NCBI GenBank assembly: GCA_045593805.1
Contig: JAZNXJ010000009.1
Span: 5,759-69,758, forward strand
DNA: 64,000 bases
Reading direction: 5' to 3'
From: Faecalimonas sp.
GTDB taxonomy: Bacteria; Bacillota; Clostridia; Lachnospirales; Lachnospiraceae
Shown one piece after another: positions 8,543-48,504 of this stretch (its first letter is position 1; each line of letters starts with the position of its first letter). Under the pieces are notes generated by a model. The model was not told where the DNA came from. It searched no databases and saw only the letters and a program-made list of their open reading frames with translations. A program made the translations under genes and the position numbers.

Positions 8543-9242
8543 TCCGTCTTCTTCCTCCTGTTAAAAGGATGATTCGAAGGAGCTGTAAAATCGCAGTTGC
8601 TGCACTCGCAACATAAGTAAGAGCTGCTGCATTTAATACCTTTCTCGCCGCCACAATTTCTTCTCCATGCATCATGCCGCTATCTGCAATCATACGAATG
8701 GCACGGTTAGATGCGTTAAATTCTACAGGCAGTGTAATAAGCTGAAATAAAACTGCCCCTGAAAATGCAATAATTCCTAAATTGATAAACAAACTAGAGG
8801 ACTCACTGGTAAACAATAAGCCGATTAAAATCAACGGCCATGCAATTTTTGCGCCGAAATTTGCAATCGGCACCAATGTACTTCTAAGTTTTAACGGCGC
8901 ATATCCCTTTGCATGCTGAATGGCATGTCCGCATTCGTGGGTTGCAACGCCTACGGCTGCCACGGATGTACTTCCATAAACCGTATCCGAAAGACGAAGC
9001 ACCTTGTTTCTCGGGTCGTAATGGTCCGTCAGATTTCCTGCAATACGCTCGATTCTTACATCGTAAATTCCTGCTCTATGGAGCACCTGCTCTGCTGCCT
9101 CTGCACCAGTAATCCCCCTGCTGTTCCTCACATTAGAAAATCTCGCAAAGGTAGTTTTTACCTTTCCAGATGCAAGTAAACTTAATGCTACTCCAATTAA
9201 TACTAAAAAATATGTTGGATCAAAATAAAATGGATAAAACAT
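8535..9242 (-). CDS. membrane zinc metallopeptidase (Zn_peptidase_2-like)
   Basis: 235 aa. HECGH(A)IQH HExxH motif and TM segments. Confidence 0.8.
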   Translation of the reverse strand: MFYPFYFDPTYFLVLIGVALSLLASGKVKTTFARFSNVRNSRGITGAEAAEQVLHRAGIYDVRIERIAGNLTDHYDPRNKVLRLSDTVYGSTSVAAVGVATHECGHAIQHAKGYAPLKLRSTLVPIANFGAKIAWPLILIGLLFTSESSSLFINLGIIAFSGAVLFQLITLPVEFNASNRAIRMIADSGMMHGEEIVAARKVLNAAALTYVASAATAILQLLRIILLTGGRRRND

Positions 9243-10180
9243 TAGCCTAAAATCTCTCCTTCTCTTACTTGATACCCTCTCATAAATGCACCCGCATCCA
9301 TACGCTTCTTCCCAGGAATCTGAAGCTCACATACTTTTAATAAGCCATCTCCTGTCTGCACGTAAAATGCGTCCTTTTCTACTTTTACAATCATTCCAGG
9401 CGCTGCGCCGTCTGCTTTCTCTGATTCTTCCAATGCACAGGCATCCCAGATTTTCATTACCTTCTCATTCCAATTTGTATAAGCGCTTGGCCAAGGTGAA
9501 AGACCGCGAATCAAACGTTCAATGGCCTTTGCTTCCCTTTTCCAATCAATACTTCCCAACTGCTTATCCAACATTTTTGCATATGCAGTTGTCGTTTCTC
9601 CTTGTGGAATCGGAGTCACTGTTTTTTCTTCTAAAGCCTTTAACGTCTCGACGCAGAGCTTTGCCCCTGCCTCTGAGAGTTTATCATGAAGGCTGCCTCC
9701 TGTTTCCTTTGAGTCCATTGGAATCTCGGTTTTGAGTAACATATCTCCTGTATCCAAACCTTCATCCATCTGCATAGTTGTAACTCCGGTTACTTCCTCT
9801 CCGTCAATGATTGCCCATTGTATCGGCGCTGCACCACGGTATTTTGGAAGCAAGGATGCGTGTACATTCACACAACCATATTCGCACATTTCCAAAATCT
9901 CTTTTGGTAAAATCTGCCCAAATGCTACAACGACCATTATATCCGCCTCATATTTCCGAAGCTCCTCGATACACTCCAGTTCTCTCACCCTTCTTGGTTG
10001 ATACACAGGAATGTTAAATTTTAGTGCACACTCCTTCACAGGTGTGAACTGCATCTCTTTTCCTCTGCCTTTTGGTTTGTCCGGCTGAGTCACGGCAAGA
10101 ACCACTTCATGTCCTGCTTCTACCAAAGCCTCCAAAGTTCCCACGGAAAAATCAGGAGTTCCCATAAAAATTACTTTCAT
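9242..10180 (-). CDS. fmt: methionyl-tRNA formyltransferase
   Basis: 312 aa. MKVIFMGTPDF N-terminus and HASLLPKYRGAAPI motif. Confidence 0.95.
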   Translation of the reverse strand: MKVIFMGTPDFSVGTLEALVEAGHEVVLAVTQPDKPKGRGKEMQFTPVKECALKFNIPVYQPRRVRELECIEELRKYEADIMVVVAFGQILPKEILEMCEYGCVNVHASLLPKYRGAAPIQWAIIDGEEVTGVTTMQMDEGLDTGDMLLKTEIPMDSKETGGSLHDKLSEAGAKLCVETLKALEEKTVTPIPQGETTTAYAKMLDKQLGSIDWKREAKAIERLIRGLSPWPSAYTNWNEKVMKIWDACALEESEKADGAAPGMIVKVEKDAFYVQTGDGLLKVCELQIPGKKRMDAGAFMRGYQVREGEILG

Positions 10181-12971: not shown

Positions 12972-14450
12972 TTAGCGGATTAAGTTTTCTCTCTTACTTT
13001 CTTTCACAACTTCGGCAATTAAAACGCGCTCATCCATATCGTATTTCACGCCCTTAATTTCCTGATAATCCTCATGGCCTTTGCCTGCCAACACAATCAC
13101 ATCACCAACCTGTGCCTCGTCAATCGCATAACGGATAGCTTCTTTTCGATCAATGATTTCCACATATTTTCCATTTGTTTTACTGATACCTGTTTTAATA
13201 TCATTGATAATATCCTGTGGTTCTTCAAAACGTGGGTTGTCAGAGGTAATAATAGTCAAATCTGCCAGATTTCCTGACACCTCACCCATCTCAAAACGTC
13301 TCGCCTTTGCACGGTTACCTCCGCATCCAAAAAGACATACCAAACGCTTCGGATTGTATTCTTTTAAGGTGGTCAAAAGACTTTCCAAGCTCATTGCATT
13401 GTGTGCATAGTCAATCATCAACGTGAAGTCGTCTGACACCTTCACCATCTCAATACGGCCTTTGACTTTTGCAGTTTTTAAGGCTTCTGTAATCCTTCCT
13501 ACCGGCACATCAAAATGCCTGCATACTGCAATGGCAGTCAAAGAATTGTACACACTAAATGTGCCCGGGATATCAATCTCCACCTCGAAATTCAGAAGTC
13601 CACTTGCCTTGTAAGCTACACCTAGATGTCCCGGACTTGACACCAATTTTACATCATTTGCACGCAAATCTGCTTTTTCTGAAAAACCAAACGTCTCTAT
13701 TTGGCAGGTTGCTTCCTTAAATACATCTTCAAAATGTGCATCGTCTACATTTGCAATACCAATTTTGCATTGCTTGAATAATAACCCTTTGCAACGTTTA
13801 TAATCATCAAAATCCTTGTGTTCATTCGGACCAATGTGGTCTTCTCCAAGGTTTGTGAAAATCCCAATTTCAAATGGAATTCCTGCAGTTCTGTGAAGCA
13901 TGAGTCCTTGCGAAGAAACCTCCATAACCACCGCGTCGCATCCTGCATCTACCATCTTTCTGAAATACTGGTGAATCGTGAAAGATTCCGGTGTAGTATT
14001 TTTGGCAGGAATGATTTCATCTCCAATAATTGCCTCGATTGTTCCAATTAACCCCACTTTATGTCCTACACCCTCCAGAATGGATTTCACCATGTAGGTT
14101 GTCGTTGTCTTTCCTTTGGTTCCCGTAATACCGATAACCTTTAATTCATCTGCCGGATAACCAAAATATGCCGCTGATGTAAGCGCCAATGCGTATCTTG
14201 TATCCTCTACCTTAATAACAGTCACATGTGCCGGAGCTTTCACTTCCTTCTCTACAATTACGGCTGTAGCACCTTTTTCTGCAACCTCCTGCACGAAGTC
14301 ATGTCCATCACGCACAGCACCTGTAATGCAGACAAATACACTGCCTTCCTTCACATTTCTCGAGTCATTTGTAAGCTCTGTAATCTCTATCTCATCACTG
14401 CCTTGCAGCACCTTGTAATCCAATCTTTCCAATAATTTTGTCAGTTTCAT
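12972..14450 (-). CDS. murE: UDP-MurNAc-L-Ala-D-Glu--2,6-diaminopimelate ligase
   Basis: 492 aa. GITGTKGKTTT P-loop and DNPR motif (TSDNPRFE). Confidence 0.92.
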   Translation of the reverse strand: MKLTKLLERLDYKVLQGSDEIEITELTNDSRNVKEGSVFVCITGAVRDGHDFVQEVAEKGATAVIVEKEVKAPAHVTVIKVEDTRYALALTSAAYFGYPADELKVIGITGTKGKTTTTYMVKSILEGVGHKVGLIGTIEAIIGDEIIPAKNTTPESFTIHQYFRKMVDAGCDAVVMEVSSQGLMLHRTAGIPFEIGIFTNLGEDHIGPNEHKDFDDYKRCKGLLFKQCKIGIANVDDAHFEDVFKEATCQIETFGFSEKADLRANDVKLVSSPGHLGVAYKASGLLNFEVEIDIPGTFSVYNSLTAIAVCRHFDVPVGRITEALKTAKVKGRIEMVKVSDDFTLMIDYAHNAMSLESLLTTLKEYNPKRLVCLFGCGGNRAKARRFEMGEVSGNLADLTIITSDNPRFEEPQDIINDIKTGISKTNGKYVEIIDRKEAIRYAIDEAQVGDVIVLAGKGHEDYQEIKGVKYDMDERVLIAEVVKESKRENLIR

Positions 14451-41890: not shown

Positions 41891-42021
41891 AATTTGCGTA
41901 CAACAAAAAGACCACCTACTGCTGGTCTCGTGCTTCTATTAAGTTTGTTGATATTAAGCTGCTCTTATAATCTGCATTCGGTTTCTTGGATGCTTGTTTC
42001 GCAGAATCTCCGCCTGCTTTT
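41891..42021. repeat. 131-bp direct repeat, left copy (orphan recombinase 3' end plus terminator)
   Basis: Matches 44693-44823 with 4 mismatches. Contains the last 22 codons and stop of a recombinase reading frame. Confidence 0.95.
41901..41928 (-). terminator. hairpin plus T-tract inside the left repeat, probably terminating the ABC operon
   Basis: AGACCA-N8-TGGTCT followed by TTTTTGTTG on the minus strand. Confidence 0.45.
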
Positions 42022-42034
42022 AAGTCAAAATCTC

Positions 42035-43003
42035 CTACTTCTTGGCTGTATAGATTTCTTTAATAATGTCTTCAATAGGAGTACTGCTAATTTTAATATC
42101 TTCTATTCTTGCCACATGCGAAAGCCTACTCATTACGTCATCAATAGATATCTCTTCCAAATCAATTACAAATGATTTCTTCTTTCCATTATCAGAAATC
42201 ATTTGTATTTTTTCATCAGGGATAACAACTTCTTCAGATAACTCAACATCTATAAAACGTCGTCTTCCATGAATATCTGCAACCTGATCCATTGCTCCCT
42301 GATAAACAATATTTCCATTATCTATTACAATAAGATCTTTACAAACATTCACAATATCTGCCATATCGTGTGAAGTGACCAACATTGTGACATCTTTTTC
42401 CTTGTTTAAATACGAAATAAAATTTCTAATCTTCTCCCTTGCCACAATATCCAGTCCTATTGTCGGTTCATCAAGGAAGACAATTTGTGGGTTATGCAAA
42501 AAAGCAACTGCTATTTCACAGCGCATCCTCTGACCTAGACTCATCTGACGAACAGGTTTATGTACAAAAGAAGATAAGTCCAAAATATCAGAAAATAATT
42601 GCATATTTTCTTTATACATCCATGTTGGTATCTTATAAATCTCTTTGAAGAGTTCAAATGAATCTATCGCGGGTAAGTCCCACCACAACTGACTTCTATT
42701 TCCAAAAACAACTCCTATCTGCTTTACATATTCTTTTCGGTGTTTTATGGGCGATAACCCATTCACCAACAAACTTCCGCTTGTAGGTTTCAAAATTCCG
42801 GTGAGCATCTTAATCGTTGTAGACTTTCCCGCTCCATTCGGACCAATAAATCCCACACTATCCCCCTTTTTTATATTAAGGTTAATGCCATTGACCGCCT
42901 GTACAATTTCTTTTTGCGGAACAAATAAACTTTTTAAATGATGATTTTTATTCTTTACAACTGTGTAACTCTTTGATAAATTCACAGCTTCGATAATACA
43001 CAT
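42035..43003 (-). CDS. ABC transporter ATP-binding protein
   Basis: GPNGAGKST Walker A, LSLGQRMR signature and FLDEPT Walker B. Start at MCIIEAV after AAAGGAG. Confidence 0.92.
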   Translation of the reverse strand: MCIIEAVNLSKSYTVVKNKNHHLKSLFVPQKEIVQAVNGINLNIKKGDSVGFIGPNGAGKSTTIKMLTGILKPTSGSLLVNGLSPIKHRKEYVKQIGVVFGNRSQLWWDLPAIDSFELFKEIYKIPTWMYKENMQLFSDILDLSSFVHKPVRQMSLGQRMRCEIAVAFLHNPQIVFLDEPTIGLDIVAREKIRNFISYLNKEKDVTMLVTSHDMADIVNVCKDLIVIDNGNIVYQGAMDQVADIHGRRRFIDVELSEEVVIPDEKIQMISDNGKKKSFVIDLEEISIDDVMSRLSHVARIEDIKISSTPIEDIIKEIYTAKK

Positions 43004-43017
43004 AGTGAGTTCTCCTT

Positions 43018-43800
43018 TCAACTTCCTGCACTGTTATAATGTTCTATTGAGATTTTCCATATGAAAATAGCAAAACACGAAAGAATCAAAGCTACTGGAA
43101 GCGTCATAAAATTCAGTATATTCATAGAATTTTCCCGTTCCAAAATATATAGCGAGGGATAATAGTTAACAAAGGCTAACGGTAGTATATACGTTAAAAA
43201 AGCAACTACCTTTTTCCCATATACATACAAAGGATAATTTAAAAAGTCTTTAAACACGAAAAATATTCTTTCCAAGTTGCTAGAATGCATCGCCCAAAAT
43301 GCAACACTCCCAATTAACAAAAACAATGCCATCTGTATGAATGCACCACCAATAATAGCTCCTAGCAAAACTAATATCTTACACATTGTCCAATGAATCT
43401 GATTATATATGCAAGAAATAAACAATACTATCACCGAAGGCAAAAGCTGCGAAAATATTTCCATAACACTAAGATTACTAAAAATAACCCCATAGAGAAT
43501 GGGCAGCGGTTTAATAAAATATGTATCTAGTCCACCGCTTATTACAAAGTTTTCTATATACCTCAGAGTACGGCAAAACACCTGCGCTATGCTATATGAA
43601 GTCAATAAAACACCATATAGGAAAATTAGGTTCCAACCATCCCAAGTACCAAATCCATTAAATCTCTTTGCAACAAACCACGAAAACAACATCTGTATTA
43701 AGTGAATTGGCGCCACAGAAATACAAAGCAATATAAAATTCAACCGATACTGAAGACTTCTTTTCAAATTCATCTTAAAATATAATCCAGCTAATTTCAT
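43018..43800 (-). CDS. ABC-2 family permease
   Basis: About 6 TM segments. Start at MKLAGLYF after GGGAGGG. Confidence 0.8.
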   Translation of the reverse strand: MKLAGLYFKMNLKRSLQYRLNFILLCISVAPIHLIQMLFSWFVAKRFNGFGTWDGWNLIFLYGVLLTSYSIAQVFCRTLRYIENFVISGGLDTYFIKPLPILYGVIFSNLSVMEIFSQLLPSVIVLFISCIYNQIHWTMCKILVLLGAIIGGAFIQMALFLLIGSVAFWAMHSSNLERIFFVFKDFLNYPLYVYGKKVVAFLTYILPLAFVNYYPSLYILERENSMNILNFMTLPVALILSCFAIFIWKISIEHYNSAGS

Positions 43801-43801
43801 A

Positions 43802-44590
43802 TTACCCTCCCTGTACACTTAATTTTTTTACTGCTATACGCCAGATAACCAACACCAAAACATATAATCCGATAATCCATCCTAATTGCAGCAAAATTAT
43901 TCGAAAATAATCTATTCCAACCACACTGCTATCCCCTGGGCTTCCCATATATATACTGATAGGTTTTTGATATATCCATACAAACGGAAGAACGTTCATA
44001 ATTTTTTCAAGCCATGCCGGCATCAACCATGATGGCAAAAACTGTCCTGATAATAAATCAACCACCACGCTGATTAAAATGAGAAGCGAAGAAGCTTCTA
44101 TTACCCAAAAGCAAGCCATAGACACTAAAATCCCAACCAAAAAGAGAAGCATGAACCCCAAAAATGCAGACAATAAAAACAGAAAAATATTTTCAACCGG
44201 TGGAATCTGCATATTAAACAGTACTTTTGCTGAAACAATAAAAACTATTCCTGATGATAATAAATTACCTATAATCGCGCCAATATCTTCAAATACTAAG
44301 GCATTTATGTACTCCCACGGTCTTAATAATTGTACTGAAATCGAACCATCTCTGATATTTGCCGACAATATGTTGGGTGAATGTATCCGATATGCAATAC
44401 CCAATATCTGTGAAACAATTGCATAATTAGCCATATACGAATACTGTGAGGAGTTATTTCCATATAACGCAAGCCAAAATTTCCGCAAAATAAATACACT
44501 CGCTATATTCGCAATTAAAAGCAACACAATGCTGGCTTTATAAGCAAACACTCTCTTAAAACCTAATTCTGCAATTTTAATATACTTCAT
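43802..44590 (-). CDS. ABC-2 family permease
   Basis: 262 aa, about 6 TM segments. First gene of the three-gene operon. Confidence 0.8.
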   Translation of the reverse strand: MKYIKIAELGFKRVFAYKASIVLLLIANIASVFILRKFWLALYGNNSSQYSYMANYAIVSQILGIAYRIHSPNILSANIRDGSISVQLLRPWEYINALVFEDIGAIIGNLLSSGIVFIVSAKVLFNMQIPPVENIFLFLLSAFLGFMLLFLVGILVSMACFWVIEASSLLILISVVVDLLSGQFLPSWLMPAWLEKIMNVLPFVWIYQKPISIYMGSPGDSSVVGIDYFRIILLQLGWIIGLYVLVLVIWRIAVKKLSVQGG

Positions 44591-44692: not shown

Positions 44693-44823
44693 AATTTGCG
44701 TACAACAAAAAGACCACCTACTGCTGGTCTCGTGCTTCTATTAAGTTTGCTGATATTAAGCAGCTCTTATAATTTGCATTCGGTTTCTTGGATGCTTGTT
44801 TCGCAGAATCTCCGCCTGTTTTT
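44693..44823. repeat. 131-bp direct repeat, right copy (3' end of the intact recombinase gene plus terminator)
   Basis: See 41891-42021. Confidence 0.95.
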
Positions 44824-45673
44824 CAATTGCAACATGAACATATATCTGAGTAGTTTTTATTGAGCTATGACCAAGAATCTCTTTGACACAACTAATATCT
44901 ACTCCCTCTTCAATCAAATATGTTGCAAACGAATGCCGGAACATATGAGGGGTGATATTTCTATCAATACCTGCCAGTTTTGAATACTTTTTCATCATCA
45001 ATCGTATCGATTGCTCCGTATACCTAGCACCCCTTTTATTTACAAAAAAGTAACCACTTTTCTTAATGGCATCTTTGTTTTCTTCATAATACTCCCGAAG
45101 TAGTTTGACTAACGAACTATCGCCAATTTGAACATATCTCTCTTTTCCGCCTTTTCCCATGATTCTTATTGAACCCGTAATTAAATCGACGCAATCAGCA
45201 CCAATATTGGAAATCTCGTATACTCTGGCTCCTGTCCCAAAGAATACCTCTACGACTGCCATATCACGTAGCCAATACTTTTTCTCTAGATAATTGCTCT
45301 TGGCGCCATGAGAATACATATAGTTCAATAACTGCTCAATTTCATTTCTTGGAATAATGCGTGGAAGCACAATGGTTTCTTTAAATTTCACCTTAATCTT
45401 CCTAAAAGGACTCTCCTCTATAAATTCCTCTTCTTCCAGATAATTATAAAAGGCTTTGACACTGGCGATTTTTCTTTTCACTGTTTTTTGCTTATAAGTC
45501 TTGTGCAAATCCGTAATATAATTCTCAATTTCCTCCTTACTCGGCTCTTTGCTTGATACTGCTTCGAAAAATTGTCGCAAATCAATCCGATATGCCTTTA
45601 ATGTTTTTTGATCCAACGCTCGTCTGAACTCGCAATATTCTAAATATTGCCCTACTTTTTCTTTCATGTACAT
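44756..45673 (-). CDS. tyrosine-type site-specific recombinase (XerC/D-like)
   Basis: 305 aa. GARVYE (Arg), HMFRHSFAT (HxxR) and GHSSIKTTQIYVHV (His..Tyr) catalytic motifs. Confidence 0.92.
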   Translation of the reverse strand: MYMKEKVGQYLEYCEFRRALDQKTLKAYRIDLRQFFEAVSSKEPSKEEIENYITDLHKTYKQKTVKRKIASVKAFYNYLEEEEFIEESPFRKIKVKFKETIVLPRIIPRNEIEQLLNYMYSHGAKSNYLEKKYWLRDMAVVEVFFGTGARVYEISNIGADCVDLITGSIRIMGKGGKERYVQIGDSSLVKLLREYYEENKDAIKKSGYFFVNKRGARYTEQSIRLMMKKYSKLAGIDRNITPHMFRHSFATYLIEEGVDISCVKEILGHSSIKTTQIYVHVAIEKQAEILRNKHPRNRMQIIRAA

Positions 45674-45745
45674 AACCTTACACCTCTGACCTTTTTTTCG
45701 TTAGTGTAACACACGCAAAGTACAGATGCATTCAGAAATATGTCA

Positions 45746-45787
45746 ATAACGGATAATTGATAGTTATCCATTGTTGCATAAAAATAA
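45746..45787. repeat. 42-bp inverted repeat, left arm
   Basis: ATAACGGATAATTGATAGTTATCCATTGTTGCATAAAAATAA is the perfect reverse complement of 48088-48129. Ends at the RBS of the GT2 gene. Confidence 0.95.
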
Positions 45788-45800
45788 AGGAGGAATTGTT

Positions 45801-46721
45801 TTGAAAAATACTCTTGTGTCCGTTATTATTCCCGTATATAACGGTGAAAAATACATTGCTCGTTGTATTAATTCAATTTTGAATCAGTCATATAAAGATT
45901 TAGAAATAATAATAGTAGATGATAATTCCAAAGATAAAAGTGCCGAAATAATATGTGAACATATGAAAAGAAGCAACAATATCAAATACTTAAAAAACGA
46001 ACATACAATAGGACCAGCAGAAACCAGAAACAAAGGACTAATATGTGCAAATTCAAAATATGTTTTGTTTCTTGATTGTGATGATTGGCTTGACTTGAAT
46101 TGCATAGAGAAAGCTGTAGATAAATTTAATTCTGATGCTGATATAGACATTGTATTATGGGAGATAAAAACAGCTTTTAATTATAGTAGAATTTGTTCAA
46201 GATATGAATACCTATACAACAATATTCTAGATAGCGAGATGGCTTTAAATTTATTGTCTCATACTTATGAAAATGAATTTTTTTTAAGTCCATTATTGGG
46301 ATGCAAATTATTCAAAAAAAGCCTTCTTGTTAATCACAACATTGTCTTTCCAGATACCATATATGAAGACGACATGTTCACTTTTTTGGCATTTTTATAC
46401 GCTAAAAAAATTGCGTTGACTACGGGAAGTTGCTTATATTACTACCAACATTCAGAATCTCTTACGCACCATTTTACAGATAAGAATATTACAGATTTCT
46501 TCAAGACCTTTAAATCTCTTTATACATACATAAACAAGGAGAAAAAAGACGCTTACTATAAATATTTAAATAAGAGTTTAATGTCTATGCTCGACAGTCT
46601 GCATAATAATGTCCAAAACTCGAGCGAACAAAGCAGATATAAATCGATGATATTCTCTTACTTTTACGAGAACATAAATGTAGAAGAGTATTATACATAC
46701 TCTTTCTCATTAACAATATAG
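45801..46721 (+). CDS. family 2 glycosyltransferase
   Basis: VSVIIPVYNGEKYI and IIIVDDNSKD motifs. TTG start 7 nt after AAGGAGG. Confidence 0.88.
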   Translation: MKNTLVSVIIPVYNGEKYIARCINSILNQSYKDLEIIIVDDNSKDKSAEIICEHMKRSNNIKYLKNEHTIGPAETRNKGLICANSKYVLFLDCDDWLDLNCIEKAVDKFNSDADIDIVLWEIKTAFNYSRICSRYEYLYNNILDSEMALNLLSHTYENEFFLSPLLGCKLFKKSLLVNHNIVFPDTIYEDDMFTFLAFLYAKKIALTTGSCLYYYQHSESLTHHFTDKNITDFFKTFKSLYTYINKEKKDAYYKYLNKSLMSMLDSLHNNVQNSSEQSRYKSMIFSYFYENINVEEYYTYSFSLTI

Positions 46722-46737
46722 ATTGCGTTTACGCAAT

Positions 46738-48069
46738 CTATATTGTATTATTTTGAACTAATAATTCAAAATATTTATCATCAAATTCCTGCAAAGCTTT
46801 TTGAGGATCAATTTTTATCAAAGCATTTCGAAAATGTTTTAAGATAAAATAATCTTGATTTTTTATCACAGTCGTTGCGTTTGTTTTCAGCCAATCTTGA
46901 ATAGCATCCAAAGATTTTTTACTATGTATTTTCCCTAGTGCTTCCACGATACTAGAAATTGTGTATTTATTTTGTTCTCGTTTAAGTTGAGTTATCAAGT
47001 TGTCTTCCGCAATATAAAGCATCTTTTCACCTGCTATATCAGCCATATGTTCACGAACATATTTGTTATCTGAAATAAGTGCATTTACAATATACTCATC
47101 AACCTTTTCCAAATCAGTTTTTAACAAAAAGGCCTCCAGTTTATATCTGTTCAAATCCACTTTTGTAGATTTAGAACGCTGAAAATATTCTATAATCCAT
47201 TTGAGACTTATTTCATTTAATTTGGAATTCTCTGCCAGTTTTATTGCTAGATTTGTTTGGTATGGCAAAAGACCATTATCATATAAACTACCGTATTCTT
47301 TGTGATTTAAAAATTCATCGATAAATTTTTGGATTTCATCACTCCTGCAACAGGACAACAGAAGTTCAAAAAAAAGTTTAAACAGGGTTGATATGTAATC
47401 CTCACAGTCTATTTTGTTCATTTCTTTTCTTAGGGTTTGATCAAATTCCCATATTGCGTTAACTACTTCGGAGGACGGCGAGACTGCCAATGTAGCGTCT
47501 TCTAACAAAGAGGTGTATACTAATATTTGTTCCTCTGAAAAAAGTTTTGAAAAATAATTAACAAAATCATCAATATCCTCAGGTTTAAGAAACTGTTTTG
47601 CTGACAACGCTCTTTTAAATGAATTTTTAAACTGATTTGCTTTCAGTCTCTTTAACAATTCAAAGGCAAGCGCCTTTAAATTGTTTTTGTCATATGGAAT
47701 ATATTGAAGGTGTTGGATGTCAAAAGGAGTGTTTCTTGATTGTTCCTTAATTATAAACACGTTTTCAAAATCTTTAATTGTATGAGTTATTCCCAGTTCA
47801 TAAAACACATTGGCATTAGTCTCCGAAATATCAACAATTATATATTGTGATGTTGCGATACCATTTAATATTAAGTTAATAATTGGAACAGATGCGGATA
47901 AGTTATTATCTACGCGTACACATTTGTAACCTGAGTTTTCCATGTACAATACAAGAGTATCATACAGATTTGTGTATTCCGCCGAAAAAGGCATAGCAAA
48001 AAAGCATTGATTTTCACTCACTGATATTTTCATTTTATTGATTTGTTTAGGATAAAAAATATTTTTCAT
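46738..48069 (-). CDS. TIR/nucleoside-2-deoxyribosyltransferase-like N-terminal domain fused to HEAT-like repeats
   Basis: 443 aa. CFFAMPF...IIVDISETNANVFYELGITH N-terminus. C-terminus has VREHMADIAGEK and IVEALGKIHSKKSLDAIQDWL HEAT-like repeats. Confidence 0.55.
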   Translation of the reverse strand: MKNIFYPKQINKMKISVSENQCFFAMPFSAEYTNLYDTLVLYMENSGYKCVRVDNNLSASVPIINLILNGIATSQYIIVDISETNANVFYELGITHTIKDFENVFIIKEQSRNTPFDIQHLQYIPYDKNNLKALAFELLKRLKANQFKNSFKRALSAKQFLKPEDIDDFVNYFSKLFSEEQILVYTSLLEDATLAVSPSSEVVNAIWEFDQTLRKEMNKIDCEDYISTLFKLFFELLLSCCRSDEIQKFIDEFLNHKEYGSLYDNGLLPYQTNLAIKLAENSKLNEISLKWIIEYFQRSKSTKVDLNRYKLEAFLLKTDLEKVDEYIVNALISDNKYVREHMADIAGEKMLYIAEDNLITQLKREQNKYTISSIVEALGKIHSKKSLDAIQDWLKTNATTVIKNQDYFILKHFRNALIKIDPQKALQEFDDKYFELLVQNNTI

Positions 48070-48087
48070 AGACACCTCATTAAAGAA

Positions 48088-48129
48088 TTATTTTTATGCA
48101 ACAATGGATAACTATCAATTATCCGTTAT
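48088..48129. repeat. 42-bp inverted repeat, right arm
   Basis: Perfect reverse complement of 45746-45787. Ends 18 nt upstream of the 443-aa gene start. Confidence 0.95.
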
Positions 48130-48504
48130 ATATTTCATTAAAAAATGCAAGAAAATAAAACGTGTCCTCCACGTCATCTCCTTGCACTGATTCCTCGACC
48201 ATATTCTAGCACAAATAAATAGGTTTCACAATATATCTTTTAAATTGTTCTAACGAATATTTTTTCTGTTCCTTCAATGCGGGACCTAACCGTAAAAATA
48301 TAATGAAAAAAAGTGGCCTTCAACCACCTTAAATCTTCTGCTGGAGGTAACATTTCCAGTTTAATACCTCTTTCACCAAGCATTCCATATAAATCTTTCT
48401 CTTCGACATTATAATTTGTCATTTCAAGCTTGCAAGTTCTATAATATAAGTATACTATACATTCGCATTCATTTCAAGACTTTTTCGAACATTTGTTCTT
48501 TGTC

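Follow-up and report, generated by a model that had tools for sequence, protein, structure and literature searches.

A candidate whole-gene inversion switch with a dedicated Xer-like recombinase in Faecalimonas and in related loci from gut metagenomes

Inversion of the G segment of phage Mu and of the C segment of P1 involves serine invertases, an enhancer and Fis, and exchanges the variable 3' parts of a tail-fibre gene whose constant part lies outside the segment. Gene-switching inversion by a tyrosine recombinase is known from the vsa/HvsR system of Mycoplasma. A XerC-like enzyme is associated with gene-switching inversion at mba/UU376 of Ureaplasma (PMC3047005), the RecV switches of C. difficile are promoter invertons (PMC5903667), and in the pdif/dif modules of Acinetobacter plasmids Xer-type sites lie inverted around gene modules that are shuffled between replicons (PMC6449649, PMC13141974). 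The locus described here lies in a 64,000-nucleotide stretch of DNA from Faecalimonas sp., a member of the gut Lachnospiraceae (assembly GCA_045593805.1, contig JAZNXJ010000009.1; the window), where positions 45746-48129 probably form an invertible segment whose flip picks which of two genes, one for a family-2 glycosyltransferase (GT2) and one for a TIR-like/HEAT protein, faces a single outside promoter, as an either/or switch.

In the mechanism proposed, the adjacent Xer-like tyrosine recombinase would bind two inverted core sites, each made of the half-sites (ATAAC)GGATAA and TTATCC around the spacer TTGATAG, and strand exchange would flip the 2.4-kb block with its two complete convergent genes. 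A predicted inward promoter (48231-48203) is present solely on the recombinase-distal flank, and the genes appear to have none of their own, so that the flip would decide which of them is transcribed. As assembled, the TIR-like/HEAT gene would face the promoter and be transcribed; in the other state, the orientation present in the congeneric genome G050, this would apply to GT2, and the outcome would be a population mixing two cell types.

Functionally, the segments of Mu and P1 (with Gin and Cin) come closest, as they likewise hold convergent alternative genes next to one fixed outside promoter (a predicted one here) and an adjoining invertase; there the flip selects the gene set to be expressed, as is proposed here. 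Unlike these and other Gin/Cin/Hin-type systems, the window locus has an enzyme of the Phage_integrase family and not a serine invertase, complete genes that each carry a ribosome-binding site, unrelated cargo and a place on a bacterial chromosome. With the Mollicutes switches it shares an Xer-like recombinase, short inverted sites near the 5' ends of genes and (as proposed) alternate expression from one site, but those switches act on paralogous surface antigens through sites in the 5' coding or leader sequence, whereas the genes in the present family are unrelated and the cargo varies by locus. Promoter invertons (fimS of E. coli with FimB/FimE, the RecV switches and the invertible promoters of Bacteroides) also combine a tyrosine recombinase, short inverted repeats and phase variation; there, however, a flipped piece of a few hundred base pairs carries the promoter and the genes stay fixed, while here the promoter is predicted to stay in place outside and it is a 2.4-kb block with two entire genes that flips. 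The inverted bounding sites, and the replacement of cassettes between constant sites (see below), resemble pdif shuffling. The pdif modules, in contrast, have 28-bp XerC/XerD hybrid sites of 11-6-11 type, use host XerCD, occur many per plasmid and have neither a dedicated recombinase nor outside-promoter logic, whereas the window locus has a dedicated recombinase alongside, a 7-nt spacer, near-symmetric, almost identical half-sites and one site pair per genome. What it has in common with tyrosine-recombinase inversion switches is an intact R-K-H-R-H-Y set of catalytic residues, inverted core sites and the occurrence of both orientations in nature. Read in this way, the locus is a known kind of switch in a new form, namely whole-gene either/or inversion with a dedicated Xer-like recombinase, and no description of the family was found in the open-access literature searched.

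The flip can be seen directly between genomes. G050, which is congeneric but belongs to another species-level group, carries the same two genes (95.5% identity) in a cassette inverted relative to both flanks. A single-base comparison placed the junctions exactly in the core, the outer half-sites remaining with the flanks and the inner half-sites travelling with the genes. The locus L029, which holds the closest relative of the window cassette, shows the window's orientation, and both orientations are therefore found in nature with breakpoints at the sites. A contig of a further genome, G049, assembled by MEGAHIT at k=141 (k being much larger than the repeat), ends at ...TTATCCAA, the last base common to both alternative inner arms. 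This end would be the branch point expected from coexisting forms in a mixed population, and flipping may be frequent within a population. In the window's own assembly, with two arm copies in total, no contigs with alternative junctions were found.

The 42-nt arm sequence occurs in exactly two copies in the whole genome (1.88 Mb, 68 contigs), and loci of the same design around the core site were recovered from metagenomes: a scan with the window recombinase yielded 79 loci at about 70% identity, mostly from human-gut assemblies. In this family the GGATAA-N7-TTATCC sites form inverted pairs with spacers matching within each pair. They are found in one of two places, 68-124 nt ahead of the recombinase start (the arrangement in the window) or about 150-290 nt past its stop (most at 197-289). 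An all-against-all comparison of the 79 loci gave 83 locus pairs in which a stretch next to the recombinase, 600 bp or longer, is inverted, among them L088/L107 (5326 bp, 99.98%), L054/L066 (3966 bp, 100%) and L040/L041 (2393 bp, 99.9%), the last carrying a GT2 and TIR-like/HEAT pair homologous to that of the window. Real contig ends were enriched about 8-fold at the sites, 14 of 83 lying at most 80 nt from one where 1.7 were expected.

The arrangement of genes and promoters is equally constant. Every segment in the family contains convergent gene sets, the start codons lie a median of 41 nt inside the sites, and an internal extended -10 was found at only 2 of 64 unique segment ends; the segment genes would thus have to be transcribed from promoters beyond the sites. 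Inward-pointing extended -10 motifs of TGnTATAAT type, in most cases 3-41 nt away from the site, are confined to one flank (28/32 against 1/32 unique flanks). Where the segment lies upstream of the recombinase this is the distal flank (11 of 15), and no inward promoter was found from the recombinase side in the 16 unique flanks of these loci (0/16). Where it lies downstream, the recombinase-proximal flank carries the motif in 17 of 17 cases and the distal flank in 1 of 16. With the promoter predicted on one side only, expression would be expected to follow orientation. Three options had been raised in the original prediction, with no choice made among them, and the congener flip, the inverted copies with 99.9-100% identity and the one-sided inward promoter speak for the first, a segment that swaps the gene placed before an external promoter.

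The left (recombinase-proximal) arm at 45746-45787 on the forward strand is the perfect reverse complement of the right (distal) arm at 48088-48129 on the reverse strand (42 nt, 100%; 0 matches expected from shuffles), and both the perfect repeats and the inner GGATAA-N7-TTATCC palindrome are present as originally described. Each arm contains the core ATAAC-GGATAA-TTGATAG-TTATCC, that is, inverted half-sites around an asymmetric 7-nt spacer. In the left arm the outer half GGATAA occupies 45751-45756, the spacer TTGATAG 45757-45763 and the inner half TTATCC 45764-45769; in the right arm the inner half is at 48106-48111, the spacer at 48112-48118 (CTATCAA on the forward strand) and the outer half at 48119-48124. 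The two core sites sit in inverted orientation with the spacer included, GGATAA-TTGATAG-TTATCC being read at either end. Judged from its sequence, this anatomy is that of a tyrosine-recombinase core site.

Comparison of the arms across relatives showed that only about 26 nt, from ATAAC to TTATCCA (45746-45770 in the left arm), are held in common, and that identity from arm to arm beyond this core (45771-45787) is found in the window genome alone. The inner sequence on the TIR-like side differs in L029 and G050, where it reads AAYRTCAAACACAAATGATTATTTAAC, and about 16 nt on this side of the window appear to have been overwritten by GT2-side sequence in a local conversion event. Since relatives share only the ~26-nt core, the 42-nt length would reflect this conversion and not a functional unit. 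Thus, the claim that both genes have identical 5' regions holds for the 42 nt of this genome, but what extends beyond the core is peculiar to it. In L029 (sites at 595-615 and 2952-2972) each outer half-site carries one substitution (ATAAaGGATAA and ATAACtGATAA); these variants are probably tolerated, both being native elsewhere in the family.

Inside the arms, two inward-facing genes with ribosome-binding sites just past the repeats were found as first described. The GT2 gene (45801-46721, forward strand; 306 aa, TTG start; Pfam Glycos_transf_2, 3e-35) has AGGAGG directly after the left arm and, as assembled, faces the flank without promoter. Its matches in NCBIfam were to GT2 families of polysaccharide and teichuronic-acid type, all of them below cut-off. 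The TIR-like/HEAT gene (46738-48069, reverse strand; 443 aa, ATG at 48069) has GAGGTG 9 nt past the right arm and faces the promoter-bearing flank. Its product combines a weakly TIR-like N-terminus with a HEAT-like C-terminal solenoid (Pfam CAP12-PCTIR_TIR 5e-4 and HEAT_2 2e-4, both below cut-off; PADLOC TIR effector 3e-5, also PDC-S35). The AlphaFold2 (AF2) model is confident for the C-terminal solenoid, which matched alphaRep/HEAT structures, whereas the N-terminal domain has a predicted local distance difference test score (pLDDT) below 50, the alignment having contained only 6 sequences, and the TIR assignment of this domain is weak. Between the convergent genes, a perfect hairpin with a 16-bp stem (46713-46746) is a putative two-way terminator. 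Both genes begin about 35 nt or less from a site, which leaves no room for promoters of their own.

The recombinase gene (44756-45673, reverse strand) codes for a XerC/XerD-like tyrosine recombinase of 305 aa, the presumed invertase, with a Phage_integrase domain (Pfam, 9.6e-42) and an N-terminal SAM-like domain; it starts 72 nt from the left arm, in keeping with the XerC/D-like recombinase reported at that side of the cassette. The catalytic residues R150, K174, H243, R246, H269 and Y278 are intact and invariant in four homologues. With 242 bits for NCBIfam XerC (equivalog cut-off 335) and 232 bits for XerD (330), the protein scores below both cut-offs and is not classed as a chromosome-dimer resolvase of the XerC/XerD type. 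From its position and its intact catalytic residues we infer that this adjacent recombinase performs the flipping.

A predicted promoter of the recombinase gene, with the extended -10 TGtTACACT (45703-45711, reverse strand), points away from the cassette. A TGnTACACT-like motif reading outward is conserved family-wide in the 68-94-nt recombinase-proximal flank of loci with an upstream segment, and is presumably the recombinase's own promoter. At L032 a lone dyad site (9901-9925, spacer TTAAGAA) lies just upstream of the recombinase, the invertible segment of this locus being downstream. This lone site, together with the distance of 68-124 nt from site to start in upstream-type loci, suggests possible autoregulation of the recombinase promoter. 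There are also recombinases with a segment on either side, the two differing in spacer, such as TTGAGAA on the upstream side and TACCTTA on the downstream side (L045, 6037-7932 and 9156-14953; also L066 and L073), which implies that the spacer keeps two switches independent. At the other end of the recombinase gene, a 131-bp direct repeat (41891-42021 and 44693-44823, 97% identical) brackets an ABC-2 transporter operon (42035-44590), the right copy being the 3' end and terminator of the gene. G018, G049 and G050 have a single copy of the repeat and no ABC operon, and this operon therefore appears to be an insertion specific to the window genome.

The predicted fixed outside promoter, TTGTGA-17-TGcTAGAAT (48203-48231, reverse strand), was identified by a promoter scan and is aimed into the cassette; G018 and G050 have TGaTAAAAT at equal spacing, 17 nt before the hairpin described next. 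Between this promoter and the right arm lies a hairpin with a 19-bp stem and a U-run (48140-48188, reverse strand; fold z = -3.1 for the single sequence), with the look of an efficient intrinsic terminator. Its conservation extends over four Faecalimonas loci, with a consensus structure of -21.4 kcal/mol and no compensatory changes, and it carries AAGGAG in the 5' arm of the stem and GGAGGA in the loop; in other family members it is absent and the promoter directly abuts the site. The hairpin had no match in Rfam. Two other candidates in the right flank were discarded: a leader peptide, as the 17-codon open reading frame is not conserved in G018, and a riboswitch, as the Rfam search was empty.

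Several observations weigh against the either/or switch. The promoters at this locus are known from sequence prediction alone, and a strong, conserved terminator hairpin separates the predicted outside promoter from the right arm, so that read-in would have to be conditional or weakened by attenuation, unless the promoter has been wrongly assigned; this makes us less confident about which gene is on and which is off at the window locus. Both arms also contain a match to TTGATA-17-AAAAAT. The window genome and G050 differ at the species level, and the difference between them could, taken alone, reflect a rare event. Finally, a TIR protein and a bona fide SIR2-STALD ThsA (PADLOC 4e-99) occur as convergent genes at two loci of the family (L084, 9204-11449; L051, 4110-6352), in a single orientation so far, as a Thoeris-like pair split over the two arms. 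TIR and ThsA partners normally act together, and such a pair fits poorly, and somewhat awkwardly, with strict either/or expression.

Some of these points would be accommodated if the segment inverted and its orientation did not choose the gene, a rather unlikely explanation in our view. The genes would then be insulated, by the terminator on one side and the recombinase promoter on the other, and read from weak in-site promoters, or the pair would be turned up and down together, the inverted sites being mainly a by-product of cassette capture. The terminator just outside the right arm, the matches within both arms and a TIR and ThsA cargo that requires both partners agree with it, as does the ATP-grasp gene of G018, which has an inner leader of about 90 nt with TATAAT inside. 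The in-arm match is, however, absent from G018 and L037, which eliminates it as a general mechanism. What remains of it in L029 and G050, on the TIR-like side, is the weaker TTGATA-17-ACAAAT, and on the GT2 side of the window the in-arm promoter was rejected because transcription would start within AGGAGG, the Shine-Dalgarno sequence. The full match built on the TTGATA -35 box of the original prediction is missing from sister loci and would place the start on the GT2 ribosome-binding site. Gene starts so close inside the sites and a promoter asymmetry this strong across the family also speak against such an arrangement.

It is quite improbable that the locus is primarily a mobile cassette, similar to a pdif module, moved between loci by site-specific recombination and inverted only incidentally. 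The idea draws on the exchange of cargo: the window, G018 and L037 have the same flanks and recombinases 96-98% identical, but different cargo. Next to its 96%-identical recombinase, G018 carries 3.6 kb with a Ddl-like ATP-grasp enzyme and a STAND/TPR protein, convergent, between sites with the spacer TTGTTAG, and L037 has a third cargo, a 4.8-kb set of three genes with the spacer TTCATAG. In the course of evolution, one cargo has clearly given way to another between these sites. Furthermore, the pair of GT2 and TIR-like/HEAT genes is found with three different spacers, and the cassette is poorer in G+C (about 0.29) than its flanks (0.35-0.47). Nested double sites also occur, with an outer spacer TTAGTAG or TTAGGAG and an inner spacer TACCTTA, 36 bp apart, at each cassette end (L101, 9128-9182 / 13524-13578; L110; L114; L116, G014:C3, from a near-complete genome, 4053-4107 / 8881-8935); one cassette, sites included, would seem to have been captured between a second pair. 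Set against this, the genome contains two sites only, excision of a circle between inverted sites is impossible, and near-identical copies differ mostly by inversion in place.

Nor is the 8-bp repeat at the flanks conserved. The 8-mers next to the window arms, ATATGTCA and ATATTTCA, had been taken for a decayed target-site duplication, and both are present, but the equivalent pairs are ATGTATCA/ATATTTCA in L029, ATGTATCA/TTGCTTCA in G018 and ATGTTTGA/TCCCTATT in G050, unmatched in the last two and a poorer match in L029 than in the window. A target-site duplication was discarded on these three relatives. With no conserved duplication and two arm copies in the genome, the element does not have the features of a transposon or MITE, and the second option raised, a mobile cassette bounded by terminal inverted repeats with a target duplication, lost its footing.

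The third option, arms that are a duplicated promoter or operator co-regulating the convergent genes without recombination, is hardly credible, since the 42 nt of identical 5' regions with a dyad and a -35/-10-like match that suggested it are countered by the inverted cassettes, with breakpoints that fall precisely on the dyad both in G050 and across the family, by an identity past the 26-nt core that is unique to the window genome, and by the absence of the in-arm match from sister loci.

Clustering of the family's cargo revealed conserved pairs. Most of these occur in either orientation, and some are combined with more than one spacer type. Besides GT2 with the TIR-like/HEAT protein and the TIR and ThsA pair, they comprise a GT4 with an nSTAND3 protein, an NTP-transferase/GNAT plus ATP-grasp set with an 838-aa protein, Ddl-like ATP-grasp enzymes with TPR proteins of ~770-820 aa, an ATP-grasp-radical-SAM enzyme with a pentapeptide-repeat protein, and a methyltransferase with a 333-aa protein. 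The recurring pairing of a modifying enzyme with an immune-type protein suggests a functional link between the arms. Since such arms recur across cargo types and the same pair is conserved across diverged switches, a more specific and quite tentative proposal, to which we give a low probability, is that the arms are matched pairs of modifier and sensor kept mutually exclusive by the flip. One state would make an enzyme that adds a sugar, an amino acid or a methyl group to a component of the cell or the phage, while sibling cells would make an immune protein of TIR, STAND or SIR2 type incompatible with, or responding to, that mark. Anti-phage immunity might in this way be shared out among the members of a population, with the division of labour written into one flippable cassette.

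In most of the inversion switches known, a promoter is flipped or pieces of a single gene, for a surface protein or a tail fibre, are interchanged, whereas here whole unrelated genes would be exchanged behind one predicted promoter. Immune-type partners (TIR-like, STAND/TPR, SIR2-STALD/ThsA and pentapeptide proteins) are paired in these loci with modifying enzymes. The site of about 26 nt, with a specificity presumably defined by the spacer and several spacer types per recombinase, could serve as a set of orthogonal inversion tools. If expression follows orientation, metagenomic gene catalogues and censuses of defence systems would miss the active state, and abundant human-gut Lachnospiraceae would hedge, at many loci, between two phage- or surface-related states.

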